This document shows, one piece after another, positions 32,196 through 48,867 of a DNA stretch of 64,000 nt. Source of the stretch: Acidimicrobiales bacterium (GTDB lineage: Bacteria > Actinomycetota > Acidimicrobiia > Acidimicrobiales > Bog-793); NCBI GenBank assembly GCA_052148655.1, contig JBKQHU010000072.1, positions 3,128 to 67,127 on the forward strand. The letters are read 5' to 3'. Position 1 is the first letter of the stretch, and each line of letters begins with the position of its first letter. Under the pieces are notes generated by a model. The model made no database searches. It was not told where the DNA came from and saw only the letters and a program-made list of their open reading frames with translations. A program made the position numbers and the translations under genes.

Positions 32196-32255
32196 TTTTC
32201 AGAACGACGCCGCAGGTAAGAACCATTTATCGAAAGCCTAGCTAGACTTCCAGTA

Positions 32256-32323: not shown

Positions 32324-32335
32324 CAATCAAGGCGA

Positions 32336-32409: not shown

Positions 32410-32478
32410 CGTCGTGGCATCGTCGTGCGCCATCCGGGCTGGATGCCCGGCGGCCACGAGATAGCCTCAACGACGGTC

Positions 32479-32552
<74 letters not shown>

Positions 32553-32657
32553 GGTCAGAGCCATGTTCCGCTTTCGATGAGCGAGTTGAGGGCCACTAGA
32601 GAGCCACTTCCGTCAGAGAGCGAGACCGCGCGACTCCACTTCGGGTACCGTCAAAAC

Positions 32658-33827
32658 GTGGCTGGACGATCGAGCTTCGGAGCAATCAAGAAACTCCCGA
32701 GCGGGCGCGTGCGCGCCTGGTACGTCATCGACGGGGTACGGCACACTGCTGGCCATACGTTTCCGAACAAGGCTCAGGCCGACGAGTGGCTCAAAGACGA
32801 GTGGAACCGCCGGCGGTCGGGCACCTGGACGGACCGACGAGGCCGCACCACGCTGCGCCAGTTCGTCGAAGAGGTTTGGTGGCCGACGAAAGTCGACCTC
32901 TCCCTTCGGACGCGCGAGCTGTACGCGGGACTTCTCAAGAACTGGATCTACGCCGAAGTCAAGCGGCCAACTCGTCCGTCGCTCCTTCTTGGCGACACTC
33001 CCGTCATGCAGATCACCGAGGACGAGATCGAACAGTGGTACCTGGCGTGCAAGGGTCGCAACCATGCCGTCGCATGTGCGAAGGCCTACCGTCTTTTCTC
33101 GGAGATCATGATCTTCGCCGACGAGAAGCGAGCAGTTGTCCACAACCCCGTCCACATCAAAGGCGCGGGCGCGGAGAACGCACCGGAACGGGAGGCCCTC
33201 ACGGTCGACGAACTGGTCTCGCTATCCGACGCGATCGAAGCTCGCTACCGGACAATGATTCTGCTTGCGACCTTCGGCGCAATGCGTTGGTCGGAGTCTC
33301 TTGCGCTCCAACGGCGCGACATCTATCTCGATCGCAAGATGGTGACGCTCCGTCGGGTCATCGTCGAACCGGACAAGGGCGAGAAGTTCGTCGGACCGTT
33401 GAAGGCGCGCGACGAGAAGGCCACACGGCGAGTCGACTTGCCCGACGAGCTCGTGCCCGTGCTCGAGGACCACTTGAAGCAGTTTGTCGGCACGCAACCG
33501 ACCGCCTGGCTCTTCGAGGACCCCGACAAGGGGCTACTGGCCCGATCCCAGTTTCGACTGCTCCTCGACAAGGCGAAAGAGGCGACTGGACTCGACGACG
33601 TCACCTTTCACGTGCTGCGACACACTGGTGCCACCTGGTTCGCTGAGGAGGGTGCCACAGTTCGAGAGGTTATGGAGCGGCTCGGGCACCGTAGCGAACG
33701 CATGGCGATGCGCTATCAGCATGCCGCCACAGAGCGAATGCGCCAGCTCGCTTCCGGCATGGGCGGTCGGCTCGGCGGTCGGCTCGGCACAGCTTCGGAA
33801 GGAAAGTCGGAAGCTGAGGCCAGCTGA
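32658..33827 (+). CDS. tyrosine recombinase/integrase 2
   Basis: FGAIKKLPSGR N-terminus, AMRWSE, FHVLRH, LGH, RYQH; start moved to GTG 32658 because the ORF-track start overlaps the tRNAs. Confidence 0.95.
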   Translation: MAGRSSFGAIKKLPSGRVRAWYVIDGVRHTAGHTFPNKAQADEWLKDEWNRRRSGTWTDRRGRTTLRQFVEEVWWPTKVDLSLRTRELYAGLLKNWIYAEVKRPTRPSLLLGDTPVMQITEDEIEQWYLACKGRNHAVACAKAYRLFSEIMIFADEKRAVVHNPVHIKGAGAENAPEREALTVDELVSLSDAIEARYRTMILLATFGAMRWSESLALQRRDIYLDRKMVTLRRVIVEPDKGEKFVGPLKARDEKATRRVDLPDELVPVLEDHLKQFVGTQPTAWLFEDPDKGLLARSQFRLLLDKAKEATGLDDVTFHVLRHTGATWFAEEGATVREVMERLGHRSERMAMRYQHAATERMRQLASGMGGRLGGRLGTASEGKSEAEAS

Positions 33828-33839
33828 GTCACACGCATC

Positions 33840-34060
33840 ATGGCGGTCTGCGAAACGTTCATCTGCGAAGACCGGTCATGGAGTGAATGGGCACAGTAGC
33901 TCGGTGTCTCGCCGGCTGTGCTCTTCGCATGCCTCGGGTCAACGATCACCGCTCGCGAGGACCATCTCCGGGCCTTCGCTCATATCGTTCCCGGATTCGA
34001 CTTTGAACGCGAACGGCAGGCGAAGGAAGCAGCCGGTTACCGTCCGTCAAGGCCTCGGCA
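33840..34060 (+). pseudogene. remnant resembling the N-terminus of an actinobacterial HAD-family hydrolase
   Basis: VCETFICEDRSWSEWAQ*LGVS...PGFDFERER resembles the DVGETL..E.R.W..WA..LGV...PGFD pattern; internal stop. Confidence 0.4.
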
Positions 34061-34071
34061 TCCCGGGCCAG

Positions 34072-35430
34072 TCACACTGATCGAGGCTCGGCGCTCCTGC
34101 CACAGTGCTCCCTGCTGAGTCTGCTTGTCCGGAGCATCAAGAGTCCGGTGACGGACAAAAGTGGCCGCCACAAAGGTTGGGAAAGGGACCTCCAGAGGTC
34201 CAGGGCGAAGGCGTCACAGGTAGTGCGAACGGCGGCGCGTTCGCGGGGTTCAGCCGCATTGCCGCCAATTGAAGCTGTAGGAAGTAGTGAGACCCTCGTG
34301 ACGATCCCAGAGTCCACAACGCTCCACCAAGAAACGACCGTGCCGGCTGGGACCACGCGTGCCGACTGGATGAGGGCCTCAGATGCATCCGACGGGTCGA
34401 GAGCGACATCCTCGGTGCCGAGCAGTTGCCCACTAGAAGGATCGACGATCAGTTCGCTACGAACACCGTCTTTCGTAAGCCCGATCCCCTGGCCCTGTTG
34501 ACCCGCGTGGTCGGCAATCGTTCCGAGCGCCTCGGTACCTGGAATGTGTGCGGCCGCCTGGTAGAGAGCCGAGCGAAGCGCAGGTGAGGTGTCTTTGGGG
34601 TCTTGGAGAAGCTCGCCCACAGCGGTGAACGCGGCGGATGGGTCATCGGGAGCGCCGTACGCACCGCTTTCCAAGGTCCGCAGCAACGCCTGCGGGTCAG
34701 TCGGCAATCCAGTCACGTCCGGGAAACCGCTAGCAGAGAGCGACGCGGTTGACGGAGCACCTGCAACAACGTCAACCGGCGGGGATCCTGCCGCTTGCCA
34801 CACCGACTTGTCTTGCGGGCTGAAGAAACTGGTCGAGAATGTGAAGCTCGCCTGACCGTTGTCATTGGGGCCGACCCAGCTTTGCGCGTGAGTCTCGTCC
34901 CAGACCCGGTAGGTCGCGCCGGCATCGGGAGCGTTCGGATTCGGCGCGGACGAGGCGCTCTGGCCGACCATCGTGGAGGGAGTCTCGTCCGGCGGGGTGA
35001 GGTTGCCGGCCGGGTTGAGAACCACGAGAGTTGCGCTGTCGGTCTCGGTGTACAGGTACTCACCGGGGCCAGGCACCGGGGTCGAGTCGTCGGCGACGAG
35101 GCGAGCTGCCCTATCGAGTTCCGCCGCGGCCAGTGACTCGCGATGTACCCGGACCCCGGTGCTCGGCCTTGGGCTCCCACCACCAGAAACCGTGACTCCG
35201 ACAGCGATGCCGGCGAGAACGAGGACGGCGGCGGCGGCCACCGCCGGGAGCACAAATCTTCGCCGACGACGGTCGACAGCCGTGTCAGAGGACGTGATCA
35301 ACGGGACTACTTCCGCCGAGGTCGCCATGGCCTCGGTGAGCCGCTGGCGGGCGCGGTCCATGACCTCTGCAGGCAGCTCAGGTCCGTCCTGTGCGAATCG
35401 GCGGACAAGGTCGAGTTCGTCGGTTCTCAT
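34072..35430 (-). CDS. CU044_5270-family-like membrane-anchored protein (putative anti-sigma partner)
   Basis: RARQRL N-terminus, single TM, PGEYLYT, LPTDPQAL, PALRSALYQA, ELIVDPSSGQLLG; ATGA-coupled to ECF sigma. Confidence 0.8.
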   Translation of the reverse strand: MRTDELDLVRRFAQDGPELPAEVMDRARQRLTEAMATSAEVVPLITSSDTAVDRRRRRFVLPAVAAAAVLVLAGIAVGVTVSGGGSPRPSTGVRVHRESLAAAELDRAARLVADDSTPVPGPGEYLYTETDSATLVVLNPAGNLTPPDETPSTMVGQSASSAPNPNAPDAGATYRVWDETHAQSWVGPNDNGQASFTFSTSFFSPQDKSVWQAAGSPPVDVVAGAPSTASLSASGFPDVTGLPTDPQALLRTLESGAYGAPDDPSAAFTAVGELLQDPKDTSPALRSALYQAAAHIPGTEALGTIADHAGQQGQGIGLTKDGVRSELIVDPSSGQLLGTEDVALDPSDASEALIQSARVVPAGTVVSWWSVVDSGIVTRVSLLPTASIGGNAAEPRERAAVRTTCDAFALDLWRSLSQPLWRPLLSVTGLLMLRTSRLSREHCGRSAEPRSV

Positions 35431-36056
35431 TGCTCCTCCTTTGAGGCCTCGGCTCGGATGTCCGGTGCCGAGGACGACTCGTCGGTATACCTATTCGAGG
35501 CACCGAGTTCGGCACGGAGCTGCTGCCTCGCGCGCCAGAGCCGTGTGCGTGTAGCGGCTGGTGAGATGTGCAGGCTTTCCGCAGCCTGCTCGATGTTGAA
35601 GTCCGTCGACGCCACTAACAACAGGAGAGTTCGTGGCTCGTTATCGATACGCGCAAGCGCGTTCGCCACCCGAGTGACCTCTCCTGTTACGACGGCGAGG
35701 TCGTGTACCGGGTCCTCATCGATCGCCTGGCGTTCACGTGTCGCCTGGCGCACACCCAGGTCCCGTCTTGCCACCTCAGCTCGACGATGATTCCGGAGCA
35801 GGTTGATCGCGATCCCGAACAGCCAGGGGCGGACATCTCGACGACGCGCGTCGAAGGTCCGGCGCTGCGCAAAAGCCACTGTGAAGGTCTCTGCGGCCAG
35901 ATCCTCGGCAGCAGTTGCCCCGACCTGGCGTTCGAGAAAGCGGTAGACGCTGCGAAAATGACGATCGAAGAGAATTCCGAAGGTTGCCGGTTCCTTGAGC
36001 GAAGCACGAAGCACGTCCCGATCAGACGGTTCGCGTTCGGTGGCCTCGATCATCAC
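35427..36056 (-). CDS. ECF RNA polymerase sigma factor
   Basis: AEDLAAETF, RPWLFGIAINL, TRTRLWRAR. Confidence 0.92.
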   Translation of the reverse strand: MMIEATEREPSDRDVLRASLKEPATFGILFDRHFRSVYRFLERQVGATAAEDLAAETFTVAFAQRRTFDARRRDVRPWLFGIAINLLRNHRRAEVARRDLGVRQATRERQAIDEDPVHDLAVVTGEVTRVANALARIDNEPRTLLLLVASTDFNIEQAAESLHISPAATRTRLWRARQQLRAELGASNRYTDESSSAPDIRAEASKEEQ

Positions 36057-36468
36057 CTGTTACTTGTCTGGCGAGAGCATCGCGTCACAGATGTCCTGAT
36101 CGTCCAGTTCAGGACAAGTGCGGACAGTCGGAGTCACCCTCATCGAATCGCAGATGTACCACGTCCAGTCGTGGCCGCACGGCCCGGACGGCGTGTGCAG
36201 CGACGGCAGCCCGTTCGTGAGCGACCGGTCTCGACACCCTCGGGAGAACTGCTGATCAGGCCGCGAACGCAATGGCGGTCACAGCTCACGGCCTAGGTGC
36301 TCCCTGCCAAGTCTCGCGCGGCCACCGGGTCCCTCGGGAGGCGAGAAGTGGAACGCTTCGCACGCCTCCGCCCTGGTGGTTTGGAACAGGTGGTGCTCGG
36401 TCGTCTTAGGCGTGGGTAAAGACGCATACTTGAAGCACGTCGATAGGTCATGAGAGGAAGGCCGACCC

Positions 36469-36693
36469 GTGAAACTGAGGCCAAGGTCCTATACGGCATA
36501 CAGCCTCGGATGTGCGGTTGCCTGGGCCGTCCTGTTAGTTGTTGTGGCTGCCCGGAAAGGCAAGCGCGACATGCGCAACGTGCTCTTGGTGTTCTATGGA
36601 TGGGTAATCGCCTGGGTCTCCAACACCATCGCCAGGGCCGTTTACCCGCCGCCCAGAGGACGGCAGGCGAGAACCCAACACCTTGAGGGGTAA
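36469..36693 (+). CDS. small membrane protein
   Basis: two hydrophobic segments, IARAVYPPP; AGGAAGG upstream. Confidence 0.55.
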   Translation: MKLRPRSYTAYSLGCAVAWAVLLVVVAARKGKRDMRNVLLVFYGWVIAWVSNTIARAVYPPPRGRQARTQHLEG

Positions 36694-36832
36694 GAGTGAA
36701 GGCCGACTTGGCTCGTCTGTCAGCTTTACCGGGCCACCCCGAAAGTGCCGTTACACGGCAGACCAGAAGAAGCTCCACACCTCTCGAACGTGTGCATCAA
36801 ATGACAGGGACGCGAGGAAGCTAGCGCGAACA

Positions 36833-37864
36833 ATGCGAGCGGTTGGAAAGCCATCACTTGACGTTCGTTCAATCCGACAACTCCTCCTTGTGCTCGCGCT
36901 GGCCGTGTCGGTCACGCAAGGGCCGGTCGTGCACGCGGCAGCGCAGACGACGACTCCGGCCTGGGTTCAGGTGTCGGTGGCAACGGTGTGGCACCTCCCG
37001 TCGAGCCCGAGACCTGTCGACGCACCAGCGCTCGGGAACCCGGCAGGGATCGAGGACTGGCTGACTCGGCTGAGCGTGACCGAACGGCTCGGCCTCGACA
37101 GCCGCATCAACACCCAGGTCCTGCTCGACCAAGAGGTCCTCGTCCTCATACACCGGGGGCGATGGAGCAAGGTCGAGGTTCCCAACCAACGCGGCTCGCG
37201 CTTTCCCACCGGCATCATCGGCTGGGTGCCGGATGTTCAGCTGTCCGCCGTCGCGCCACCGGCGAACTCTCGCGAGATGATCGTCAGCGCGGCGCGCACG
37301 TGGCTCTACGCCGTGGCCAATGGCATGGTCGCCCGACGCCGCTTCCTCGTCAGCTACGACACCGTCCTGCCCGTCGTCAGGAGAGTGCCGGGCTACCTCG
37401 TCCTCGGACTCCCAGGAGGACAAAAGGGGGCGATCGCCGACAATGCGCTCAGCCCAGTGCATCTCGGCGCCGTATCGGGGACGACCGTCGCCAACCAGGC
37501 GCGTCGCTTCCTCGGGCTCCCCTATCTCTGGGGCGGGACGAGCGGCTTCGGCTACGACTGCTCCGGCTTGGTGTACTCGCTCTATGCCCACTACGGCATC
37601 TACCTACCCCGCGACGCGGCCGACCAGCGCCACGCCGGCATCCCGGTCCCGCTCGCCAAGCTCCAACCGGGTGACTTGCTCTTCTTCGCCGGACCTGGCG
37701 GAAAAGGACTCGTCCACCACGTCGCGATCTACGTCGGCGGCGGGCACGTCATCGATTCGCCGTACACCGGGGCATCTGTCGAGATTGTTCCGATGACATC
37801 CCTCCCCGTCTGGGATGAGTTCGCCGGCGCGATCCGGCCGACCCTGGCGAGCGCACCCGCCTGA
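36833..37864 (+). CDS. NlpC/P60 (C40) peptidoglycan endopeptidase with SH3-like N-terminal domains
   Basis: LGLPYLWGG..GYDCSGL, LPRDA, PGDLLFF, HHVAIY; signal peptide. Confidence 0.92.
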   Translation: MRAVGKPSLDVRSIRQLLLVLALAVSVTQGPVVHAAAQTTTPAWVQVSVATVWHLPSSPRPVDAPALGNPAGIEDWLTRLSVTERLGLDSRINTQVLLDQEVLVLIHRGRWSKVEVPNQRGSRFPTGIIGWVPDVQLSAVAPPANSREMIVSAARTWLYAVANGMVARRRFLVSYDTVLPVVRRVPGYLVLGLPGGQKGAIADNALSPVHLGAVSGTTVANQARRFLGLPYLWGGTSGFGYDCSGLVYSLYAHYGIYLPRDAADQRHAGIPVPLAKLQPGDLLFFAGPGGKGLVHHVAIYVGGGHVIDSPYTGASVEIVPMTSLPVWDEFAGAIRPTLASAPA

Positions 37865-38041
37865 CGCCCTTACAGCCTCCGCTCCCGGCTCGATTCTCGC
37901 TCTCGCGTCCAAGATGGCCTGCTGGGGAGCCGACGCCTCACACTGTGGATGCGGCTGGCCCGCGGGCGATCTTCTCGTTGGTCGGTGCACTCTTCCGAGC
38001 TCTCGGACCTACCCGCACAGCCCCTAACTCACTCCTGGCGG

Positions 38042-38290
38042 CTAGCCCAGCCAGACGTCCTCCGGGCGGTATGCACCGCCCGGGTTCACGGTGAACCCGT
38101 GCAAGCTCGGTCGCCAAGCGTAGATGTTAGGCGGATAGTCGAGCGCGATGTAGGGAGCGTCCTGGGCCACGATCGCCTGGACCTTGGCGTAGAGCTCGGC
38201 CCGTTTCGCGCCGTCGAACTGCGTTTCGGCTTCTCGGACGAGCGCGATCGCCGCTGGGTCGTCGTAGTTGTAAGCAAGACAGGTTTGCAC
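38042..38290 (-). pseudogene. C-terminal fragment of ABC peptide-binding (family 5) protein
   Basis: DGAKRAELYAKVQAIVAQDAPYIAL typical C-terminus only. Confidence 0.65.
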
Positions 38291-39075
38291 GCTCTGTTCA
38301 ACGGCCTAATTGCAGGTCGTCGACGAGCCCAGGTGCAACTATTAGCAGGTGTAGAACGCTGCACGGGAGGCACTGCCCCGCCACCAAACCGGTGACGGTC
38401 TTCCTTACCTGCTCGTCGACTTGCAACACTCAGCCTACGCAGTCGCCTGAGGGGTTGCTTGGACCGTCAAGGTGCGTCACTTGGTCCACTCGCCAGCGCC
38501 AGTGCTCCCCCGCTGCGGCCGCCACGGTTACAGGATTTGACCTTTGTCACGCACCATCAGCTCCGAGACCCAGCTGACTCCAGAGCCAGCTCCATTAGGG
38601 TCGCCGGTCGCGGCTCGCGACCCGTCGCCGGGGCATAGGAGCGAGTGGCAGCCTGAGGCTCGTCAGGTGCCGTCTCGAAGTAGCGCGGCGGTGCTCCGTC
38701 ACGCTAGGCGGAGAGGAGTCGCGGGAATGCCAACCTGGACGGGCGGAGGCTTGGTCTTCAGTGGCAGCGGCCTAATGATGCACTCGATATAGCTGTAGAT
38801 CGGGACAGGTCAAATGGATGTTGCTGGTCGTGTGGAGTTGGGGGAGGATCAGCTTCGAGAAGAGCGGGATGACCTGATCGCACGCCTGGTGTACAGACAG
38901 ATCAAGGACAATCTGGAGGCCCCAGCCGAAACCGAAAAGACAGGCCGCCACGAGGGAAGACAAGACGGCGAGGGAGACGAGACGTTGAACCTTGCGGCCG
39001 AACGTGCCATCCAGGCTTGGACCGAACAAACCTCGCCAGTTGAACATAAGCCACGAACCAAACCCCTTCGGTGAC

Positions 39076-39282
39076 CTAGTCGTCGAGCAGCCGCTGCTCT
39101 CGACCGATCCGTTCCCGAAGGCTCTTGCGAAACTCGTCGTCTCCGCGTCGCTCCTCAATATGCCGAGCGATTGCCGCTCGGACAACCTCGGACACAGGGA
39201 GATCGTCCACCGTCGCGATGGTTTCCAGCTCCTCAGCCTGCTCGGGTGAGAGACGAACCGTCATGGCCTTAACCGGTTTCAT
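39076..39282 (-). CDS. ribbon-helix-helix (CopG-like) DNA-binding protein
   Basis: AMTVRLSPEQAEELETIA....VSEVVRAAI. Confidence 0.85.
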   Translation of the reverse strand: MKPVKAMTVRLSPEQAEELETIATVDDLPVSEVVRAAIARHIEERRGDDEFRKSLRERIGREQRLLDD

Positions 39283-39306
39283 GCGGTGATTATCGCGCTT
39301 GGTGGA

Positions 39307-39360
39307 GCGGTATGCAAGCACCGCGCTGATGTGGTATCATGGTGTCACGCCGAAAGGAGG
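39307..39360 (+). promoter_or_regulatory. extended -10 promoter, candidate operator and RBS of the Ubl operon
   Basis: GCGGT-N8-ACCGC at 39307-39324; TG-G-TATCAT at 39332-39340; AAAGGAGG at 39353-39360. Confidence 0.55.
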
Positions 39361-39365
39361 CCAGC

Positions 39366-39644
39366 ATGAGCCAAGACGACCCCGCCAGCGAGCGGCCACA
39401 CGAACACGAGTTCCACATCCAGATCGACCGCGAGCACTTCACTGTGCGCAAGGAAGAGCTGACTGGCGAAGAGTTGAGGAATTTGCCAAGACCACCGGTT
39501 CCCGCCGATCGAGATCTCTTCGAAGTGCGTCCCGGCGAGTCTGACTTACTGATCGAGGACACGACCGTCGTCAAGATTCACGACGGTCTGCGCTTTTTCA
39601 CTGCGCCGAGTCACATCAACCCCGGGGCCTATCAGACACGCTGA
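39366..39644 (+). CDS. ubiquitin-like protein (single multiubiquitin-type beta-grasp domain)
   Basis: FHIQID...LTGEELRNL...DLF...D..I.....V.I..G.RFFT..INPG plus AYQTR tail. Confidence 0.85.
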   Translation: MSQDDPASERPHEHEFHIQIDREHFTVRKEELTGEELRNLPRPPVPADRDLFEVRPGESDLLIEDTTVVKIHDGLRFFTAPSHINPGAYQTR

Positions 39645-39660
39645 CACCGAAAGCTCGATC

Positions 39661-40053
39661 ATGGGACTACTGCCTGAGGATGCTCGATACCTTGTCGACC
39701 GGAGGATCGCACACGAGGTCACGGAAGAGGCTGGCATGACGTGCGTCCTGCTGCCCGGGTGGCCGTTGCCGACCGGGTTGGACCACGGGCAGGTTGACCT
39801 TCTTATCCGACTGGCACCTGGCTATCCCGACATCGCTCCGGACATGTGGTGGGTTGATCCAGCGCTCCACACAGCTAGCGGTGCAACCATCCCCAACACC
39901 GAATCGGTAGAAGTGCATCTCGGGCGGCGGTGGCAGCGCTGGTCCCGTCACTTCAACCCGGGTCAATGGCAGCCGGGCATTGATCGACTCGAAAGCTATC
40001 TTGCGCGGGTCGCCGGTGAGCTTCAACGCATGGCGACCGGGAGTGCTGCGTGA
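39661..40053 (+). CDS. prokaryotic E2 (E2/UBC family E)
   Basis: LPTG...LLIRLAPGYPDIAPDMWWVDP, WQRWSRH, WQPGIDRLESYL. Confidence 0.9.
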   Translation: MGLLPEDARYLVDRRIAHEVTEEAGMTCVLLPGWPLPTGLDHGQVDLLIRLAPGYPDIAPDMWWVDPALHTASGATIPNTESVEVHLGRRWQRWSRHFNPGQWQPGIDRLESYLARVAGELQRMATGSAA

Positions 40054-41450
40054 ACGAGGCCACACTGGTCCTGCCACAGGAGATCGCAAAGGACATCGCG
40101 CGTGCCGCCCGGACGGACATCGAAGTCGCAGCGGTGATCTTGGTCGGTGCTGCTAACACGCGGGCTGGTCTTCGCCTACTCACTCGAGAAATCCATTGGG
40201 TACCCGCCGATTGCTACCAGCGGCAGACCTACAACTCTCTGAGTATCTCGTCGCACGGCTTTGTGCCAGCTCTTCGGAGGGCTGAAGAACTGTCAGCAAC
40301 CCCGGTGTTCCTCCACACGCACCCGGGGGACGATGCGGACCCACGGCCGAGCAAATGGGATGACATCGTGGACGAACAACTCGCCGATACCTTCAGAATC
40401 AGAAGTGGCTCGGACCGCTATGCCTCACTAGTTTTCTCACCAGCCCAGCGACTTTTCCGATTCAGTGGCCGAGGCCTGGACGACGATCAGCCATTTGAGG
40501 TTGGTCGCATCCTCGTAGCCGGCGACCGAATTGCGCTGCTCACATCGGTCAATGGAGATGCCAATAGTGAACTCTCGCCCATCTTCGATCGGCAGATTCG
40601 CGCGTTCGGCAGTAAGGTCCAACGAGTCCTCTCCAGCCTCCGAATCGCCGTCATCGGCTGCGGCGGCACTGGCTCCGCTGTAGCCGAACAGCTTGTTCGC
40701 CTGGGCGTTCGATCGCTGGTGCTTGTCGACAACGATGACCTCAACGAATCCAACCTGACACGAGTCTACGGGTCGAATCCCTCCGGCCTCGGCGAGCCCA
40801 AGGTCAACGTCCTCGCCAACCACCTGCTGCAGATCGCACCTGACCTCGACGTTACAGCTATCAAGAAACTTGTAACCGACGAGCTGACTGCACGAAGACT
40901 CACCGACTGTGACGCTCTCTTCGGCTGCACCGACGACAATGCCGGTCGGCTCGTCCTCGCCCGGCTCGCTAGTTACTACCTAGTGCCGCTCGTTGACTGT
41001 GGCGTTCTCATCAGCTCAACCTATGGAACGATCAACGGAATCGACGGCCGTGTGACGGTTCAAACTCCTGGCGCGGCATGTCTCGTGTGTCGCAACCGCG
41101 TCGACCTAGCACGAGCCGCGGCTGAGCAGCTCGACCCAGGTGAACGGCGACTTCGCCAAGACGAGGGCTATGCCCCCGAACTCGGGCGAGTTGAGCCAGC
41201 GGTCGTTACCTACACTTCACAGGTGGCCGGCCAGGCGGTCAGCGAACTCTTGGAACGGCTAATCGGTTACGGGCCGGAACCAGTGCCGACTGAAGTTCTT
41301 CTTCGTTTCCACGACCGCGAGATCAGTACCAATATCCAATCGCCAAAGACTGGCCACTTCTGCCACCCGGTTGACGGTTCGCTCGGTCGGGGCGACAGCG
41401 AGCCGTTTCTCAATCAGCTTTGGAGATCTCCGCGATGCGGTCTCCAATAA
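40050..41450 (+). CDS. JAB-like peptidase fused to ThiF/E1 adenylyltransferase
   Basis: N-terminal E...HTHP-x8-SKWD JAMM-like motif; FDRQ, GCGGTGS, DND.L.ESNLTR, K, GCTDD...R, CLVC. Confidence 0.92.
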   Translation: MNEATLVLPQEIAKDIARAARTDIEVAAVILVGAANTRAGLRLLTREIHWVPADCYQRQTYNSLSISSHGFVPALRRAEELSATPVFLHTHPGDDADPRPSKWDDIVDEQLADTFRIRSGSDRYASLVFSPAQRLFRFSGRGLDDDQPFEVGRILVAGDRIALLTSVNGDANSELSPIFDRQIRAFGSKVQRVLSSLRIAVIGCGGTGSAVAEQLVRLGVRSLVLVDNDDLNESNLTRVYGSNPSGLGEPKVNVLANHLLQIAPDLDVTAIKKLVTDELTARRLTDCDALFGCTDDNAGRLVLARLASYYLVPLVDCGVLISSTYGTINGIDGRVTVQTPGAACLVCRNRVDLARAAAEQLDPGERRLRQDEGYAPELGRVEPAVVTYTSQVAGQAVSELLERLIGYGPEPVPTEVLLRFHDREISTNIQSPKTGHFCHPVDGSLGRGDSEPFLNQLWRSPRCGLQ

Positions 41451-41803
41451 AGCGAACAGCGTGGTTGCCTCACTACCGCTTCTTCGTCGCGGGCGAAGTA
41501 GGTGCAGCAGACGAGATTCCAAAGCGACTGCCTCGCAAGGCCGTCATCTTGGTCTCACAAGCTGGGCGCGCAATGTGGGCGGCGTTTGATTGTCCGTGCA
41601 AGCGACGTCACCGCCTGATGGTGAACCTAGACTCGCGTCGAAAGCCATACTGGAGAATCGTGCCGACATCCGGTCTTACTTTGAGCCCTAGTATCGACAC
41701 GCTTGACCACGGCGTCCGTTGCCATTTTCTCCTTCGGTCCGGACGCGCTCAATGGGTGGGTGCGACATCATCAGTAGGAGGACAGAATGACGACTGTCGA
41801 TAA
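41435..41803 (+). CDS. DUF6527-like Cys/His metal-binding protein
   Basis: FDCPC....LMVNL....PYW....LTLSPSI......CHF.L..G...W. Confidence 0.8.
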   Translation: MRSPIKRTAWLPHYRFFVAGEVGAADEIPKRLPRKAVILVSQAGRAMWAAFDCPCKRRHRLMVNLDSRRKPYWRIVPTSGLTLSPSIDTLDHGVRCHFLLRSGRAQWVGATSSVGGQNDDCR

Positions 41804-42710
41804 AGGTGCCACTCCTGATAGCCAGCCGACCAACGAGCCGGCAAAGTCAATCCGCACGCCTTTTTATCGTGCGACCAACGCGCCTAGATACGAGCGTCAA
41901 GCTCAGATCCGCGCCATTCAGGACCTAACCAATAGCAGGCTCGTCTGCTATATCGGCGGACCACAGGCGTCCCTATCTCGAGATGACGCCCTGCCGCTAG
42001 TTGACCTTTTCCACACTATTCCCGCCGGATCGGACATCGACCTTCTGCTCCACACGGTCGGCGGTGACGTCGACGCAGCAGAAAAGATGGCTTCGATGCT
42101 GCGGAAGCGAGTAGGCGACAGGGCCAAGTTTCGCGTGATCGTCCCAGACCACGCCAAGAGTGCTGGCACACTGATAACCCTGGCAGCCGATACGGTCGTA
42201 ATGAGCGACAGCTCAGAACTCGGACCCGTTGATCCACAGCTAAACCTGCCTGACGGACACGGTCGCTTCAACTACCGACCTGCGCAATCGTACGTTGACG
42301 GGTACGAGGCGCTTGTCAAGCTGGTTAACGACAATCCCTCTGCGAGCGGCTACCGCCAAATGCTGGACAAGTACGACCCCACGACTCTTGATATGTGCAG
42401 GAAGGTCCTAGAACGCTCCGTGAAGCTCGGGGAATCCCTGCTTCAACAAGGGATGTTCAGAGGCGGAGGCGGAAACTTCACTGCGGTCGCGGGACAGCTT
42501 GCGGATAACCATAAGTGGCTATGGCACGGCGTGCCTATTGATTATATTGAGGCGAAGAAGCTTGGACTGAATGTCACTTACTTAGAACTGGACGATCCCT
42601 TGTGGCAGCAGTTTTGGGCGCTCTACTGCGCACAACGGCTTGAAGTGGGCAAAATATCCGAGGATTGCAAGCTGTTTGAATCTGATTACGTGTCTATTTC
42701 CATGCAGTGA
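41787..42710 (+). CDS. SDH-family ClpP-fold serine protease
   Basis: LLLHTVGGD, AKSAGT (Ser), ELGPVDPQ (Asp), WHG (His); AGGAGGA RBS; overlaps DUF6527 stop. Confidence 0.88.
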   Translation: MTTVDKGATPDSQPTNEPAKSIRTPFYRATNAPRYERQAQIRAIQDLTNSRLVCYIGGPQASLSRDDALPLVDLFHTIPAGSDIDLLLHTVGGDVDAAEKMASMLRKRVGDRAKFRVIVPDHAKSAGTLITLAADTVVMSDSSELGPVDPQLNLPDGHGRFNYRPAQSYVDGYEALVKLVNDNPSASGYRQMLDKYDPTTLDMCRKVLERSVKLGESLLQQGMFRGGGGNFTAVAGQLADNHKWLWHGVPIDYIEAKKLGLNVTYLELDDPLWQQFWALYCAQRLEVGKISEDCKLFESDYVSISMQ

Positions 42711-42947
42711 GCCTTTCCATCCGAGTGGTCAGACGACACAGGCGACTAGACAGCAAGTACCGCATTCATTCTTCGGATTTTATCCTTGACTGCCAGTCTG
42801 TAAATGTACCGTCCGGCTGGTAGTGCCCAGTACCTCTAAGTCCAGGTCAAAGGGCAATTCCGCAGAAGTCCAATGTTGCCTGGTTATGGCCAATCCGGCT
42901 AAACGTAGCCAGTATGGCTATCAACTTGGCTACATTTTCGGACATAA

Positions 42948-43000
42948 CAAAAGCCCAGCCGAAACAGAGGGCTCGAGCCGGGAAGGCGTTTCACTGGGCT
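42948..43000 (-). terminator. putative intrinsic terminator after integrase 3
   Basis: minus strand AGCCCAG-TGAAAC...GTTTC-GG-CTGGGCT followed by TTT. Confidence 0.5.
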
Positions 43001-43081
43001 AGCGCCAGGCATCACCGGAGGCTCATCGGGGTCGGCCACGCCTTGCGCCGAGTGCAGGGCTCGGGATCTCGGCGCAGTTCT

Positions 43082-44197
43082 TCATCGCAAAGCCCTGGAC
43101 ATCGCGTCTGCGGCCTGCCTGTTGGTTTCCGGCGATACATGGCCATAGATGTCGGCAGTGATGCGGATGGACGCATGACCGAACACACGGGACACAACCT
43201 CGATGGGGACACCTTGGGCGAGCATGATCGTGGCCGCTGAGTGGCGCAGGTTGTGCCACGGCATCGAGGCCAACCCCAGGTTGGCGCTGACCCTGTGCCA
43301 GTGCTTGCGAATGTTCGAGTCGTACAATGCCGTGCCCCGCGCACTCGTGAAGACGAGATCGTCGCTGCCTTGTGTCCCTTCGAAATTCTGGCGGACCTGG
43401 TGAACCCGCAGAGACTCCATGGCCTGCGGGGTGAGCGGCACGGTTCGGCGGGACTTGTCGGTCTTCGGATCAGTGCGCTGCCTGACCTTGCGATCAAGTG
43501 TGCCGGTGACTAAGAGAGTGCCAGCTTCGAGGTCGACATCGGACCACCTGAGCGCCAACAGCTCTCCTTGACGTAGGCCGGTGTGGATCGCGACCACGTA
43601 GAGAGGGAGCAGCCGGTCGTCGTGCAAGGTGTCGAACAGTTGCTTGGCTTGTTCTGGTGTCAGCACCGGTCGTTCGTCCACCTTGACCGCAGGGGCATCT
43701 GTGAGAGCTACGACGTTGCGAGCGACATAGCCTCTGCGCTCGGCTTGTCCGAGTGCCCGTCGCAGGATCGTGCGGGCGAGCCGTTGTGTGTTGCCACTCT
43801 TTTCAGCTTCGGCGAGCGTTCGGCCCATCTTCTCAACATCTTCAGGTGTGAGGCGAGCAAGGCGGATGTGGCCGAGATGGGGTCGGACGTAGAGATTGAC
43901 GACCTCCCTGTAGCTACGCCGCGTCGATGCCTTCAGCTTTCCTGTGGCGTCGAGGCCGTCCAACCATTGATCGAGCCATGCAGACACGGTCATGTTGCCG
44001 CCTGTGGTCACGATGCCCTTGTCCCTGGCGTCCTGTGCCGCCTTGAGCTTGGCCTGAACCTGTCTCTTGGTCGAGCCGTACACCGTTTTGCGAAGACGCT
44101 TGCCGTTCGAACCCTTCCCGAGTTCGACCGTGGCAACCCAGCGGCCGTCGCTCTCTCTCTGGAAGATGCCACCCTCGCCTGATCCTCTTCTGGCCAT
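43082..44197 (-). CDS. tyrosine recombinase/integrase 3
   Basis: RRGSGEGGIFQR..DGRW arm-binding N-terminus, TGLRQGELLALRWSD, PKT, WHNLRH, FGH, IYGH. Confidence 0.97.
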   Translation of the reverse strand: MARRGSGEGGIFQRESDGRWVATVELGKGSNGKRLRKTVYGSTKRQVQAKLKAAQDARDKGIVTTGGNMTVSAWLDQWLDGLDATGKLKASTRRSYREVVNLYVRPHLGHIRLARLTPEDVEKMGRTLAEAEKSGNTQRLARTILRRALGQAERRGYVARNVVALTDAPAVKVDERPVLTPEQAKQLFDTLHDDRLLPLYVVAIHTGLRQGELLALRWSDVDLEAGTLLVTGTLDRKVRQRTDPKTDKSRRTVPLTPQAMESLRVHQVRQNFEGTQGSDDLVFTSARGTALYDSNIRKHWHRVSANLGLASMPWHNLRHSAATIMLAQGVPIEVVSRVFGHASIRITADIYGHVSPETNRQAADAMSRALR

Positions 44198-44831
44198 CCA
44201 ATTCCCTCGTCCTCGAGGCCGCTCGCCGACCGGTCCGCAGTCTACCCAGTCAGGATGTCTTCAACCCAACACCTTGCTCCGCAAGGATTTTCTCTCCTAT
44301 TGCTTGGCTACACTTGGCTCAAGTCGCTTGAGCACAGTCACGATAGGGCAATCGTCAACGTGACACAAGGAAGCACGGGGGCGGCCGGACCGGCCAAAAG
44401 CGGTGCGGCCGGACGGCACGGACCGCCCCGACCAGGACCGGAAGCAAGAACGAGGCTCCGACGAGCCTAGGCGCCCCGCCGGGCGCCACGGCGGCCCAGA
44501 CGGGGCCGACCGGGGCGGCCGGCGGAAGGGGGAAGGGGGGTCGGGGTCGTAGATCTTGGCTTTCTCGGGGTTCTCAAGAAGGTACAAGAGGGCTAGCCGC
44601 CTGCGGCAACCGACGAACGGCTCATGGCCGATCAGCTACGCAACGTCGCGATCTACTTGGACTCATTGCCGCCCACCGCTTGAGCGAATCGTTCTTAGGT
44701 GCCTCGCCGAGACGGACTCCGGACGTCGGGCGTCTGGAGAAAGCACCGTCCGTCTCCACGACCCCCTCCCTCCCCTCCTCGCCCCGCCGGCCGCCGACTC
44801 CGACTGCGGTCGCCTCGCCTCGAGGCTCACC

Positions 44832-45380
44832 CTATGCGCCAGCCGCTTCAACGAGCCCGCGCACGTCGGCCAAGCTCAGTCTCAAGGTCGGGCGATCGCC
44901 TAGCGCCCGAGCTACCGCCGTCACGGCCGGGCCCAGCTGTCGCACCTCAATCAAGGTCGACCTCGACACGGTCGCGAAGGGTATACCGAGTGCCGCTTCG
45001 AGCGACTCTTCGGTCTGCGCGTCGCGGAGGCCGGCGCAAACTCGCCAGCTGTTCAGATCGGCGCGGTACGAGTCCTTCAGGGTGTGCTCGAATGCCGCCC
45101 GCTCGGCTAGCGCGCCGGCAAGGCAGAAGCGGAGCGACCCGACCGGGTCGGCCGCGACCGCGGCGCGCAGGTGATCGACCGACTCGAGCCGGACCCCGCC
45201 GCCGGTGAAAGCTCCGACCTCGTTCGGGTGAAGGGTCGGATCAGGGTTGATGGAAACGTCGACGAACTCGATGCCGTGCTTGACTGCTACAACGGCGTGG
45301 CCAGCCTCGTGAATCACAGCATGGCTGAGGCCTCCGTGCCGCAGGCAGAGTGAGTTCCAGAGATCCAAGCTCGCCTTCAT
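44832..45380 (-). CDS. stand-alone zinc metallopeptidase domain, FtsH/M41-like
   Basis: HEAGHAVVA...LAGALAE...DL; ATGA-coupled to the upstream gene. Confidence 0.75.
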   Translation of the reverse strand: MKASLDLWNSLCLRHGGLSHAVIHEAGHAVVAVKHGIEFVDVSINPDPTLHPNEVGAFTGGGVRLESVDHLRAAVAADPVGSLRFCLAGALAERAAFEHTLKDSYRADLNSWRVCAGLRDAQTEESLEAALGIPFATVSRSTLIEVRQLGPAVTAVARALGDRPTLRLSLADVRGLVEAAGA

Positions 45381-46276
45381 CCACCCGAATCCCCTCTACC
45401 TCCTCGCGCAGCCGAATCGTCGCAGGTCCTCTCCACCAGGCTTGCTTTGAAGTCGTCAGGAAGCGCTGCGACCGCCGTGGCAAGAGAGGGATGAATGGCC
45501 CCGGACGACACAGACTTGAGGGCAGCACATGCCAAATCGCGAAGATACTTGGAGGATGCAAAGACTCCTTCCTTGGCGTAGACGTAGAGGAAGTACTCGA
45601 TCTGATCCGGCTCGCAGCCGCCAGTCGCCGAGAGAGCTGACAACTCCTTGGACCAGAACCCAAGAGCTCGGCAGTAGTAGTCGTAGCGCGCGCTCGGGGC
45701 TGATGGCGGACTCCATCTCGCACCGAGCATCGTGTTAACGAATGTCAGGGTCCGGTGGACCCGCTCGTCATAGATAAGCGGTCGACTGTCCAATGGCCAA
45801 CACTCTGCGGAAAGACCCTTTGTGAGAAAGTACAGGTACTTCGTAAAGAACGATTCTCCGTATCCCTCGATACTCGGCGTCGAGGTGAACGCCTGATACA
45901 GCCTCACGAGGTTCCCGGACTCGAGAGCCTTCAGGACGTCAGCGGTGACCTTCGCCACATTGGGCGAGGCGAGCGTCCTTGCCGCGTGCCCGCGAGAGTT
46001 GACTCCTCGGCTGCCAAAAATGAATGTTGCGACCACTAGTTCCGGAGCCGCTGTTCCAACACCCTGGCGCGCGGCGGCGCCCAATTGAAACAGGTCGTGG
46101 CGAGTCAGCGACTTGGCGCCGAAGCGTTCCGCGAGCGCTAGGACTGGACCGCATTGGGGAAACCTCTCACGCCACGCGTCTGGAGTCTGTCCAGCGCCGT
46201 GATCTGCGACGGTGACGCTGACCACGTCAGTCACGTGGGACTGTAGAAAATGAGGCAGCGTGGGTAAGTTGCTCAT
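45377..46276 (-). CDS. OGG-fold (8-oxoguanine glycosylase-like, HhH) protein
   Basis: IEGYGESFFTKYLYF, PLIYDERV, Y..Y, DQIEYFLY. Confidence 0.75.
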   Translation of the reverse strand: MSNLPTLPHFLQSHVTDVVSVTVADHGAGQTPDAWRERFPQCGPVLALAERFGAKSLTRHDLFQLGAAARQGVGTAAPELVVATFIFGSRGVNSRGHAARTLASPNVAKVTADVLKALESGNLVRLYQAFTSTPSIEGYGESFFTKYLYFLTKGLSAECWPLDSRPLIYDERVHRTLTFVNTMLGARWSPPSAPSARYDYYCRALGFWSKELSALSATGGCEPDQIEYFLYVYAKEGVFASSKYLRDLACAALKSVSSGAIHPSLATAVAALPDDFKASLVERTCDDSAARGGRGDSGG

Positions 46277-46325
46277 CTTGGTCTCCTTCGTTATGTCGCG
46301 TAGCGGAGCCAGTCCCAGCTCGTTC

Positions 46326-47918
46326 TCAGCTGTGGCTGTGAAGTGCGATCACGAGCCCGACGATGGCGATAGCGACCGCTATGGCCGCGATATACAGGGC
46401 TCTCCTTTGTAACCGAACGCCGGTCGCGGCGGCGGTGACACTTCCGATCGTCTCCAGTGTGTCCGAGAGTCGCCCGATCAATCGCTCGAGCTTGGCGACT
46501 CGGTCGGAATACTCGGCCCGCATCGAGGCCGCAAGTGTCGTCACGACAGAAGGCTGCCTCTCGGATAGTTGTAGGAAGGAAGGAAACTGCCACTCGAAGC
46601 TTGTCGACTGCTGGGTAACTAAGTCTCGCAACTCGTCTGCCGAGATCGCGACATCGATAGCGACGGTCTTCAGATACACCTGCAGCCCGTTCAGCGCCCG
46701 AATCGTCCTCCAGCGACCCCAGCGTCGCGACGACAGGTCTCGCGATAAAGAGCCTTGTGCTTCCCAGACCTCTGCCAGAGATCGGAGACCCCACGCAGCG
46801 AGGAGCCCGTCCCACTCGACATCGCGTAAGGCGTCCGGAAGGTCCGATCGTGAGCCCGTCGGCGCGACCGTGGAAGCGGCTGGGAGGTGGCTCCGTGCGG
46901 CGGCGAGAACCAGGTTGTGCCGTACCCGAGGCTCCTCGAAGCCGAGAGGCACCTTCGCTCTGAGGCCGACTGGATCCGTGCATATCCATACCTCACCCAT
47001 GACACCATCGAGGTCGCACGCGTGGAGCCAACGCGCGGAGCGGCTGAGGAACCTGCCCTGTAGTGGTGTCTCGCCATCGACGACAACGAGCTCGGCGGTC
47101 GGCACAGCGCCTCTTGTCGACTTGCTACTGAAGATCCCCGGGACCTGTCGAATCAACCAGCGATGCGCCTCCCTATGGAGCTGGTCGCGCCACATGTGAA
47201 CTTGCTCCGCCTTGACATTCTCGGCGAAGGTGCTGCCGATCGCGCCACCGTGCTCGCGCGTAATGCGGTCAGGAGTGGGGGCACGAAGCAACGACTCGAT
47301 CTCGCCGGCGGCGTCATCGGTGAGGGTAAATTCAGCAATCACCGCGTTGATGGTGCGTGTGACACTAGCGATTCGTAGCTCCACTCGCGAGAATTGTCGG
47401 GGTAGGTCGCGCGCCTTGCTCGCCCTGTCAAACAGCCCGACTGGACCGGCGCGGGTGAACGTTCCGATACCACGGGAGCCCTCGAAGGGTGCGCGACCAC
47501 GAATGTCCATCACCCACTCGTCGAGCTCATGCTGCTCCAATCCGAGTCGTCCCCTTCTTAGGGCTCGAAGAGCGGCATCGACCGTTGATGAGGTAAGCAT
47601 CTCGACTATCCAAAGCCGCGTGAGTGATAGATGCGCATCAGCGGGTGGGGTGTGCAACTCACTCTGTGTCGCGTAACGCTGTCTTGCCATCGCAGACATG
47701 TGGATGAAGCTGTGGAGCTGGGTCCCGAGGCGCCGCAAGTTCGCGGGGACGAGGTGGCGTAGGCGGCCCCGCGGAAATGAAAGCCAACTTGTGACCTGTC
47801 TTACGGTCTTGCCGCGTCGGATGGTCTCGTCCCTCGACACGAGCTCGATCAGGACAAAGACACGGGCGAGGAGCGTCGACCCTGCCCGGGACGCTGAGCG
47901 CCGCCACCGACGGATCAT
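46326..47918 (-). CDS. hypothetical protein with C-terminal coiled coil and TM helix (start uncertain)
   Basis: long ORF co-oriented with neighbours; ends RLQRRALYIAAIAVAIAIVGLVIAL. Confidence 0.7.
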   Translation of the reverse strand: MIRRWRRSASRAGSTLLARVFVLIELVSRDETIRRGKTVRQVTSWLSFPRGRLRHLVPANLRRLGTQLHSFIHMSAMARQRYATQSELHTPPADAHLSLTRLWIVEMLTSSTVDAALRALRRGRLGLEQHELDEWVMDIRGRAPFEGSRGIGTFTRAGPVGLFDRASKARDLPRQFSRVELRIASVTRTINAVIAEFTLTDDAAGEIESLLRAPTPDRITREHGGAIGSTFAENVKAEQVHMWRDQLHREAHRWLIRQVPGIFSSKSTRGAVPTAELVVVDGETPLQGRFLSRSARWLHACDLDGVMGEVWICTDPVGLRAKVPLGFEEPRVRHNLVLAAARSHLPAASTVAPTGSRSDLPDALRDVEWDGLLAAWGLRSLAEVWEAQGSLSRDLSSRRWGRWRTIRALNGLQVYLKTVAIDVAISADELRDLVTQQSTSFEWQFPSFLQLSERQPSVVTTLAASMRAEYSDRVAKLERLIGRLSDTLETIGSVTAAATGVRLQRRALYIAAIAVAIAIVGLVIALHSHS

Positions 47919-47991
47919 CGGCTCGACTCGCCGACGCGGTCTTGCGGCAAAGTCCCGCGAGAGCGGTTCGGCGAAGCGCCGCTCCCAATCA

Positions 47992-48867
47992 TCACGACTT
48001 CTGACCGCTCACGGCGATGGCACGGCTGCGGCGGGCCTCAAGAGTCTCCAGCAACATGCGGCAGTAGGTCGTCGCTGCTCCGACGGCGAGGTGAGCGTGC
48101 CGCGGCCCAAGACCCACCGTCGGGGTGGTCCTCCCGTGGTCGAGTCCGTACTCGTTGCGGAGTTCGGCGATGCCGATGGCAACCTGGGAGAGGTTGGAGA
48201 GGATTCGCTTGGTGGTCTCGGCTCCCTTGGCAGACGGGGCGAGTGACGACGGATCGAGTCGGAGCGCCTTCTGTGCGGCCTTCACGAGGGCAGGGACGTC
48301 CGCTCGCTCGTCGTAGGGCTCCCCCAGTTCGTGGAGAACCGTCTTGGTGGTCGCTTCGACGAGGGCTTTGGCACCGCTGATCGCCACCGGCACGTCGGTA
48401 TCCATCGCCCCCGCAATGCGATCAAGGTGTTCCATGACGGCCGCCGGTTGGCGAAGTCCGGCAAGGTTGAGTTCGGCCGTAGTCGTCGAGAGCATGGAAG
48501 ACATAATCCGCCCAGAGTCGTCAACCGAGTATCCGTCCCGTTCGAGATGCCGAACGAGCTGAGTCCTGCGTTCAATCCCGAACTCGTTGTCCTTGGCGAG
48601 CCACGACAAGATCTCCTCGAAGACGTTGAGGATTCGCCGTACGTCACGGGGGTCGGACCAGTCTGTTCCGTAGGAGTAGCGGTCGAAGGTCCCGCGCCGT
48701 TGGCCCGGGCTGTACCAACCGCCAGCCCCGGCCTGCTGGTCGTCCGCGGGATCGAAGCCCTCATTCTCAAAGGCTTGCTCAATCTGGCGGACGGCGGCGG
48801 CGTCACTGCACGTCTCACGGAAGCCGTTGCGAGTCCGCCTGTGGATGAGGTCAGTCATGCCCGCCAC
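47992..48867 (-). CDS. abortive infection family protein (AbiJ-like N-terminus + Abi_C/HEPN)
   Basis: AISGAKALVEATTK, ELRNEYGLDHGR, RHAHLAV; N-terminal I...FENEGF, QRR, DWSD...L..FE. Confidence 0.85.
   Translation of the reverse strand: MAGMTDLIHRRTRNGFRETCSDAAAVRQIEQAFENEGFDPADDQQAGAGGWYSPGQRRGTFDRYSYGTDWSDPRDVRRILNVFEEILSWLAKDNEFGIERRTQLVRHLERDGYSVDDSGRIMSSMLSTTTAELNLAGLRQPAAVMEHLDRIAGAMDTDVPVAISGAKALVEATTKTVLHELGEPYDERADVPALVKAAQKALRLDPSSLAPSAKGAETTKRILSNLSQVAIGIAELRNEYGLDHGRTTPTVGLGPRHAHLAVGAATTYCRMLLETLEARRSRAIAVSGQKS

Follow-up and report, generated by a model that had tools for sequence, protein, structure and literature searches.

What kind of ubiquitin-like conjugation system lies around positions 39366 to 41803 of a 64,000-nt stretch of DNA from an Acidimicrobiales bacterium, how far does its operon extend, and in which process might it act? 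The whole of this stretch is called the window here, and all coordinates are positions in it. An earlier note, made from the letters alone, had described these positions as a complete four-gene operon of the Bil or Bub classes in an integrative defence island, encoding a ubiquitin-like protein (Ubl), an E2, a JAB-E1 fusion and a DUF6527-like protein. The Bub family (6E) has been known bioinformatically since 2006, and its oxyester chemistry was worked out in 2024. The operon is intact and an ordinary Bub family member, and our analysis makes it quite probable that it is a functional, horizontally acquired conjugation operon of six genes, all translationally coupled, with a likely part in phage defence together with its last gene. 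The four genes of the earlier note stand, and the extent it gave to the unit does not: a divergent ribbon-helix-helix (RHH) gene upstream and an SDH-type protease gene downstream also belong to it.

The family of the operon was established from profile, sequence and structure comparisons. Pfam matched the Ubl to Multi_ubiq (8.2e-9; 36 bits against a cut-off of 24.5), the E2 to Prok-E2_E (5e-36), the JAB-E1 protein to ThiF (5.3e-38) and the fourth product to DUF6527 (4.5e-15), as the earlier note had anticipated, and the JAB model that it had also named was not reported. In the Protein Data Bank (PDB), the closest sequence match of the JAB-E1 protein was Citrobacter BubCD (9ea4_A, 7.6e-28, residues 23-408), and that of the E2 was Citrobacter BubB (9eae_C, 4.6e-15), in which QRWSRH is identical. 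The DUF6527 protein, which corresponds to the BubE protease of Ye et al. (10.1101/2024.11.21.623953), aligned with BubE of a Citrobacter freundii plasmid (BLASTP, 7e-11), including the P-S and C..H-F motifs. The Ubl matched nothing in the PDB by sequence at E <= 1, and a fold search was needed. Its AlphaFold2 model is a beta-grasp fold with a disordered N-terminus and a predicted local distance difference test score (pLDDT) of 83.5, and Foldseek placed it closest to a Citrobacter multi-ubiquitin protein (9d59_A; E 4e-5, root-mean-square deviation 1.5 A over 71 columns). Other leading fold matches were 8u38 and 9cd2, and multi-ubiquitin proteins of E. coli ZDHYS365 and Methylobacterium were among the best, so that both Bub and Bil structures are represented among the matches. 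The earlier note would have given up its proposal for want of a beta-grasp or UBC fold; the Ubl model has the beta-grasp.

Because of the Pfam assignments, the sequence matches to BubCD and BubB and the beta-grasp model of the Ubl, the operon is, on sequence criteria, a member of the Bub (6E/DUF6527) family in its JAB-E1 (Type I-like) class. The wider Bil/Bub match proposed at first is thereby narrowed to Bub. Bil was rejected because the window has no separate JAB, no tandem-domain cysteine E1 and no cysteine E2: the JAB has a single ThiF domain fused to it, the E2 carries Ser rather than Cys, and the nearest PDB entry is BubCD.

The genes are named bubA (Ubl precursor), bubB (E2), bubCD (JAB-E1) and bubE (DUF6527 protein) here, and their coordinates are given in Table 1. 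All four are real and intact, with a Ubl gene that ends INPG-AYQTR-TGA and an E2 that contains WQRWSRH. The tight packing reported for them, with the last three genes overlapping, is seen in the coordinates: the E2 and E1 genes share 4 nt and the E1 and DUF6527 genes share 31 nt, and a gap of 16 nt separates the Ubl gene from the E2 gene, which is in the +1 frame relative to it. The DUF6527 gene in turn overlaps the SDH-type protease gene by 17 nt.

Of the promoter and ribosome-binding site that had been claimed upstream of bubA, the binding site was found and the promoter was not. A strong Shine-Dalgarno sequence, AAAGGAGG, is present at 39353-39360, 5 nt upstream of the ATG at 39366, and for this reason that ATG is favoured as the start of the Ubl. 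A sigma-70 consensus scan found no promoter in 39283-39365; a TGn-extended -10-like sequence, TGGTATCAT, was seen at 39332-39340 by eye only, and we infer from the sequence that a promoter lies upstream of bubA. The same control region contains an inverted repeat (39283-39291 / 39316-39324) that is a possible operator for the RHH protein. A terminator-like hairpin (9 pairs) with a T-run was also noticed at 39563-39597, within bubA over the conserved RFF codons, and is probably there by chance because such sites are no more numerous in the region than in shuffled sequence.

The divergent gene upstream matched Pfam DUF6290 (1.8e-5, under the cut-off) and RHH_1 (4.6e-4, at the cut-off) and NCBIfam RelB-like (6e-5, under the cut-off), and its start at Met14 is kept in 52 of 54 aligned homologues. 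Its product is a putative RHH (DUF6290/CopG-like) repressor, which might repress the operon at the 83-nt control region.

Conservation was evaluated in 80 related loci that were fetched with the JAB-E1 protein (50-62% identical), each protein being aligned separately. These loci come from Actinomycetota, Chloroflexota, Acidobacteriota, Pseudomonadota and other phyla. Since the same gene order is found in 80 loci of many phyla, the gene arrangement is not due to chance. A homologue of the RHH gene was present, divergently and upstream, in 59 of the 76 related loci with room for it. A tree of the JAB-E1 proteins (IQ-TREE quick search, LG+G4, SH-aLRT support), built from 81 clade sequences and five plasmid outgroups with no rows dropped, separated the clade from the outgroups with 99% support and placed the window at the clade base, together with two other Actinomycetota (L001, L002). 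The same clade includes a decayed copy on a plasmid of Microbacterium sp. SGAir0570 (L174; NZ_CP027930.2:5035-7433). There the annotation lists RHH, multiubiquitin and E2 genes and, after a truncated ThiF gene that was matched as three pieces, neither a DUF6527 nor an SDH gene.

The residues on which the chemistry of the family depends are conserved to a very high degree. In BubCD, Tyr374 in the E1 crossover loop (Citrobacter Y370) and Arg238 of the adenylation site (Citrobacter R227) are each kept in 81/81 sequences, as are the JAMM residues H89, H91, S101 and D104; the fifth JAMM residue, E25, is kept in 80/81. The cysteines and histidine C344, C347, H436 and C438 are likewise present in 81/81 each. 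In BubB, Ser95 and His97, which correspond to Citrobacter S333 and H335 (9eae_C chain positions 104 and 106), are found in 78/78 each and Asp61 (Citrobacter D299, chain position 70) in 77/78; the sole cysteine of this E2, C28, does not reach 95% conservation. In BubE, the dyad of Ser91 and His102 is complete (76/76 each), and the zinc ligands are Cys58 and Cys101 (76/76) and Cys60 and His64 (75/76). Mutagenesis in Citrobacter has demonstrated that the equivalents of Tyr374, of the JAMM motif, of Ser95, His97 and Asp61 and of the BubE dyad are catalytic, and BubE was identified as a serine protease that removes the Ubl (Ye et al.). Because the residues proven to be catalytic in Citrobacter are invariant in the clade, Ubl transfer is expected to proceed via oxyester rather than thioester intermediates.

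A pathway can be proposed on this basis. The JAMM domain of BubCD would cut the BubA precursor after Gly87 and release AYQTR; the E1 domain would then adenylate Gly87 and carry BubA on Tyr374 as an oxyester. From there BubA would move to Ser95 of BubB, with His97 and Asp61 assisting, and then to lysines of target proteins, and BubE, by homology, would strip BubA from these targets through Ser91 and His102.

The first of these steps had already been proposed, with the JAB removing AYQTR to expose the glycine, and we consider the inference sound. The motif RFFxAPxxI[NT]PG is present in 75/75 loci with Gly87 invariant, and what follows it is not conserved: in the 74 unfused loci the tails are 0-29 amino acids long with a median of 5, the length of AYQTR in the window. 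Citrobacter BubCD cleaves directly after the conserved glycine (Ye et al.). Tail trimming is therefore supported both by the Citrobacter biochemistry and by a glycine that is invariant while the tails vary.

The separation of the Ubl and E2 genes deserves comment, because a Ubl-E2 fusion (BubAB) has been stated for all Type I Bub operons (Ye et al.) and the window has instead a stop codon, the 16-nt gap and a frame change. The E2 frame of the window stays open upstream through the run CCCCGGGG, and we considered whether this junction might be a programmed frameshift or a BubAB fusion that has been broken; this was rejected, as the genes are separate in 74/75 loci and the tails are not conserved. 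Relative to the Ubl, the E2 gene was in frame 0 in 16 loci, in frame +1 in 27 and in frame +2 in 31; only L060 was fused. The latter is a true in-frame Ubl-linker-E2 fusion (L060:4706-5821). In its relatives (L051, L064, L066, L070, L073 and L075), the Ubl tails are 19-29 amino acids long and run 17-20 nt past the E2 start in a different frame, and bubA and bubB seem to fuse and split readily. Separate polyUbl and E2-like genes are on record since 2006, with fusion only "in some species" (Iyer, Burroughs and Aravind, PMC1779556, in row 6e of Table 1), and the unfused layout is found on RefSeq plasmids of Synechocystis, Pseudanabaena galeata, Acidiphilium and Mycolicibacterium. The missing fusion is therefore not disqualifying, and the unfused arrangement is neither an error nor new. 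As for the single beta-grasp domain of the window Ubl, a passage of the companion preprint puts single-domain Ubls at 40% of Bub Ubls (10.1101/2024.11.21.623966).

The gene that follows bubE encodes a protein that matched Pfam PF01972 SDH_protease (7.5e-19; 68.3 bits against a cut-off of 31.3). With NCBIfam Clp_like_SDH it scored 85 bits, and because the equivalog cut-off of 250 was not reached, we regard it as a divergent SDH subfamily. Its AlphaFold2 model (pLDDT 91.7) was matched by Foldseek to ClpP, SppA and 1510-N with target-normalised template modelling scores of 0.55-0.64. Ser125 in an A-K-S-A-G motif, K124 and H247 are kept in 69/69 sequences and SELGPxDPQ is conserved; Ser125 is the predicted nucleophile, with K100, K124 and H247 as candidates for the general base. 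It was found that the SDH gene directly follows bubE in 68 of the 78 loci with room, is elsewhere in the locus in two and is absent from eight. A reverse search with the protease alignment yielded 77 new loci among the matches listed, and the Bub genes were immediately upstream of the SDH gene in 68 of these. The gene was absent from the non-clade Bub operons that we examined, eight annotated plasmid loci and two genome loci; the operons without it include the fused Type I ones from Pseudanabaena PCC 7367 and the Citrobacter freundii plasmid, four unfused plasmid operons of the CapH/CapP type and two actinobacterial Type II operons. A predicted complex of the SDH protease with the Ubl precursor scored 0.02 against a mark of 0.32, with controls not run, and is evidence neither way.

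Six loci of the clade (L007, L016, L017, L039, L044 and L067) have no SDH gene, and in the same position they encode a protein of approximately 520-550 amino acids that matches Pfam cytidine/dCMP deaminase and the PADLOC anti-phage dCTPase model (PDLC02373). The dCTPase match was E <= 1e-133 in five copies, and the sixth (L017) is broken and matched at 1e-84. In 5/5 intact cases, the ATG of the deaminase gene overlaps the bubE stop by 4 nt. On the JAB-E1 tree, the deaminase label requires three changes, at least two of which are forced by well-supported branches. Taken together, these changes on the tree and the 4-nt overlaps indicate that the slot has been exchanged more than once and that the coupling was kept each time.

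Judging from its gene context, the last position of the operon appears to be an effector slot, and the conjugation module would most likely act in phage defence with, or by gating, the last gene. It is the context that argues for a defence role of the window operon, and few of the contextual links that we found between Bub and phage defence are as direct as the slot of this clade. In a stronger form of this proposal, an exchangeable terminal effector would be wired to Ubl conjugation, with tagging by BubA and de-tagging by BubE and the JAB gating or directing the effector; we put this forward tentatively and hold it to be rather doubtful. If it were true, such wiring would give Bub a readable output, and in the protease version BubA-tagged phage or host proteins would be handed to the co-encoded ClpP-like protease, which could make this a bacterial equivalent of proteolysis directed by ubiquitin. 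The fifth gene and the effector slot are not described in the main texts of the two Bub preprints or in the searchable literature, and the supplementary tables may list neighbours; likewise, no clade variant that combines an RHH regulator with a fifth-gene slot was found in the searchable literature.

Several observations weigh against reading the operon as an ordinary Bub system that acts in defence with its last gene. No Bub operon tested protected E. coli from phage (Ye et al., 10.1101/2024.11.21.623953), a study in which a stress response is kept open as the role of Bub. PADLOC, which the earlier note had suggested as a check, did not recognise the system: no model recognises the Ubl, E2, BubE, SDH or RHH proteins, and only generic E1-E2 models match the ThiF domain in the window. 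Nine of the 77 new loci among the matches listed have the SDH gene without Bub genes, two of them without upstream sequence; in L114 the protease is among transposase genes and in L129 it is beside an integrase, and the protease might accordingly be cargo in its own right. In two loci (L032, 5316-5591; L037, 5321-5575) the glycine is the very last residue of the encoded Ubl and the JAMM motif is intact, and therefore the JAB must have a role beyond tail trimming. The zinc ligand set of BubE is C-C-H-C, as opposed to the published C4 set (Ye et al.). Lastly, C344-x2-C347, a CxxC motif at the start of the crossover region, approximately 27 residues upstream of Tyr374, is without counterpart in Citrobacter BubCD, and a thioester role for C344 or C347 may have to be reckoned with.

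The loci with an unaccompanied SDH gene speak for an alternative in which the fifth gene, be it the SDH protease or the dCTP deaminase, is an independent system or mobile cargo beside a four-gene Bub operon. Defence genes do cluster in islands, the SDH homologues without Bub lie next to transposases and an integrase, and the dCTP deaminase reportedly defends as a single gene, a result of Tal et al. from 2022. The spacing is too tight for such a bystander: to the 17 nt in the window and the 4 nt in 5/5 dCTPase loci can be added an overlap of 4 nt in Methylocystis. In addition, the adjacency in 68/78 loci extends over many phyla, and no such gene was found in the examined non-clade operons. We consider independent cargo to be unlikely.

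The surroundings of the operon bear on a second alternative. A tyrosine integrase gene, which belongs to the context and not to the pathway, follows the operon and is convergent with it (Table 1); in L002, the closest relative, the SDH gene is likewise followed by an integrase. An OGG-like gene, an AbiJ-like gene and the genes of a short prokaryotic Argonaute (pAgo) with its SIR2-APAZ partner are all within 9 kb downstream of the operon. Across the region the GC content drops from approximately 0.70 to approximately 0.60. A search of 30 relatives, including 18 of the same genus, gave no match to the operon DNA; DUF6527 occurred in 2 of the 21 genomes from the genus and passed the cut-off in 5 of the 401 from the phylum, a tally that includes the unpublished G117. 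The integrase, the short pAgo/SIR2-APAZ pair, the AbiJ-like gene and the absence of the operon from the same-genus relatives searched support the integrative defence island of the earlier note. Its remark that many neighbours are decayed was only partly checked, and what was found in its favour is one repeated fragment (38039-38268) and approximately 1.2 kb without a family match.

Table 1. Positions in the window of the operon and of neighbouring features.
Feature	Position	Strand	Remarks
RHH gene	39076-39321 (ORF); 39076-39282 from the probable, conserved start Met14 (39282)	-	divergent to operon
Control region	39283-39365		83 nt, between RHH gene and bubA
bubA (Ubl precursor)	39366-39644	+	92 aa; ORF open from 39339
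bubB (E2)	39661-40053	+	130 aa; stand-alone
bubCD (JAB-E1)	40050-41450	+	JAB/JAMM at about residues 1-165, ThiF-type E1 at about 179-420
bubE (DUF6527)	41420-41803	+	serine protease family by homology
SDH-type ClpP-fold protease gene	41787-42710	+	307 aa; fifth operon gene
Tyrosine integrase gene	43082-44197	-	Phage_integrase 3.3e-30; convergent with operon
OGG-like glycosylase-family gene	45377-46276
AbiJ-like (Abi_C) gene	47992-48867	-	4.4e-8
Short pAgo gene	48868-50055	-	PADLOC pAgo_I 3.7e-145
SIR2-APAZ partner gene	49884-51236	-	4.3e-112
Second tyrosine integrase gene	31011-32153	-	adjoins tRNA-Pro (32336-32410) and tRNA-Gly (32479-32552)
clpX and tig	15527-19078		core genes

The low-GC variable region apparently extends from after tig to beyond 51 kb. 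The segment 42774-44323, which comprises the integrase with its flanks, exists within the genus in multiple copies of 80-92% identity, some of them on other contigs of the same genome, and two flanking stretches of approximately 160-170 nt (42787-42949 and 44360-44533) recur alone in many contigs. Rfam reported nothing in 42600-44900 at E <= 0.1 and only the two tRNAs in 30000-50000, and a search for attachment sites found no direct repeat that joins the tRNA-Pro/tRNA-Gly region to the integrase flank. The fragment at 38039-38268 (approximately 230 nt) contains an open reading frame of 82 codons on the minus strand with no Pfam match and recurs, with approximately 80% identity, across many genomes of this genus; it resembles a 3' fragment of a multi-copy gene.

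That the operon adjoins an integrase, together with the fact that phage protection has so far been seen for no Bub operon, is compatible with the second alternative: the operon would conjugate BubA as proposed, but to the benefit of the mobile element or as part of a stress response (acting on host proteins after DNA damage, for instance), and not in phage defence. The coupling of sister operons to a known anti-phage effector and the defence-gene neighbourhood both speak against it, and we think it improbable, if by no means far-fetched.

A third alternative concerns the two genes at the ends of the unit. Other JAB-E1 Bub operons carry upstream pairs of a helix-turn-helix (HTH) protein and ImmA/IrrE (CapH/CapP-like) and no SDH gene, and the SDH protease with the RHH protein could be the analogue of CapH/CapP, a protease-controlled switch of the operon in which the protease, once activated by a signal, cuts the repressor and is not an effector. 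All 59 loci with the RHH gene have the SDH gene, and the six dCTPase loci are without both. This association is weakened by nine loci that keep the SDH gene without the RHH gene, mostly in one subclade, and by the small number of independent losses, and the SDH gene is at the far end of the operon, where the dCTPase effector sits in the sister operons. A switch of this kind is, in our view, distinctly unlikely, and an effector in the last position is preferred.

It is highly improbable that the genes form a ThiS/MoaD-type sulfur-carrier or cofactor pathway, or that the E1 works through a cysteine thioester on C344 or C347: NCBIfam ThiF/MoeB models do match the E1 domain, but with scores far under their cut-offs (e.g., 84.8 versus 275 bits), the BLAST and Pfam checks found no biosynthetic gene, such as one for a rhodanese, ThiG or MoaE, in the window or the related loci that they covered, the related loci contain E2, JAB and BubE partners, and Tyr374 aligns with the catalytic Citrobacter Tyr370. 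A sulfur-carrier pathway was accordingly rejected, and the cofactor context that the earlier note would have taken as refutation was not seen in the homologous loci covered. The invariant CxxC near the crossover loop forms with HxC a set that we take to match the structural zinc site of ThiF, MoeB and UBA5, and it is probably such a ThiF/MoeB-type site that has been lost from the solved Bub E1.

How does this operon compare with known systems? The Type I Bub operon of Citrobacter sp. RHBSTW-00271 consists of BubAB, BubCD and BubE (PDB 9ea4, 9eae and 9eav; Ye, Gong, Chambers and Corbett, 10.1101/2024.11.21.623953). The window shares with it the JAB-E1 fusion, a Prok-E2_E protein with QRWSRH, a Multi_ubiq Ubl in which the mature end is a glycine and the DUF6527 protease, and its JAB-E1 protein is approximately 27% identical to Citrobacter BubCD. 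It differs in encoding Ubl and E2 by separate genes and in the Ubl's single beta-grasp domain, of which Citrobacter has three, and also in having an RHH protein in place of a winged HTH protein or CapH/CapP, an extra ClpP-fold protease, the CxxC...HxC set and a C-C-H-C BubE. In its separate genes it resembles the 6E operon on pSYSX of Synechocystis PCC 6803, where multiubiquitin, E2/UBC, JAB-ThiF and DUF6527 genes follow in the same order. Unfused 6E operons of the pSYSX type, however, carry HTH and ImmA/IrrE genes and no fifth protease gene, and their JAB-E1 proteins are at most 34% identical to that of the window and fall outside its clade.

A closer likeness, which belongs to the clade of the window, is found on plasmid pDSM21852-1 of Methylocystis bryophila (NZ_AP027150.1), with six genes in an identical layout: DUF6290 (in reverse), multiubiquitin, E2/UBC, ThiF, DUF6527 and a 299-amino acid protein. 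The latter is 41% identical to the SDH protease of the window (3e-79), and its gene is the one that overlaps the DUF6527 gene by 4 nt. Unlike the window operon, the Methylocystis operon is on a plasmid and not beside an integrase, and its fifth gene is annotated in RefSeq as "hypothetical protein".

Among the systems with a demonstrated role, Bil likewise contains a Ubl, an E2, a JAB and an E1, and its conjugation is proven to be anti-phage, as related in the part of Ye et al. that deals with it; by the same account its JAB is separate, its E1 combines tandem adenylation domains with a Cys domain, its E2 is of the Cys kind and a DUF6527 protein is absent, in contrast to the window. The nearest precedent for gating is the Cap2/Cap3 pair of type II CBASS (cyclic oligonucleotide-based anti-phage signalling system), a conjugation and deconjugation module that controls an enzyme of the same operon. 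The window differs from it in having neither a CD-NTase nor an E2-E1 fusion, and the CBASS substrate is the C-terminus of the enzyme itself, not a Ubl. The anti-phage dCTP deaminase, finally, occupies in six sister operons the same coupled place after bubE in which the window has the SDH protease instead.

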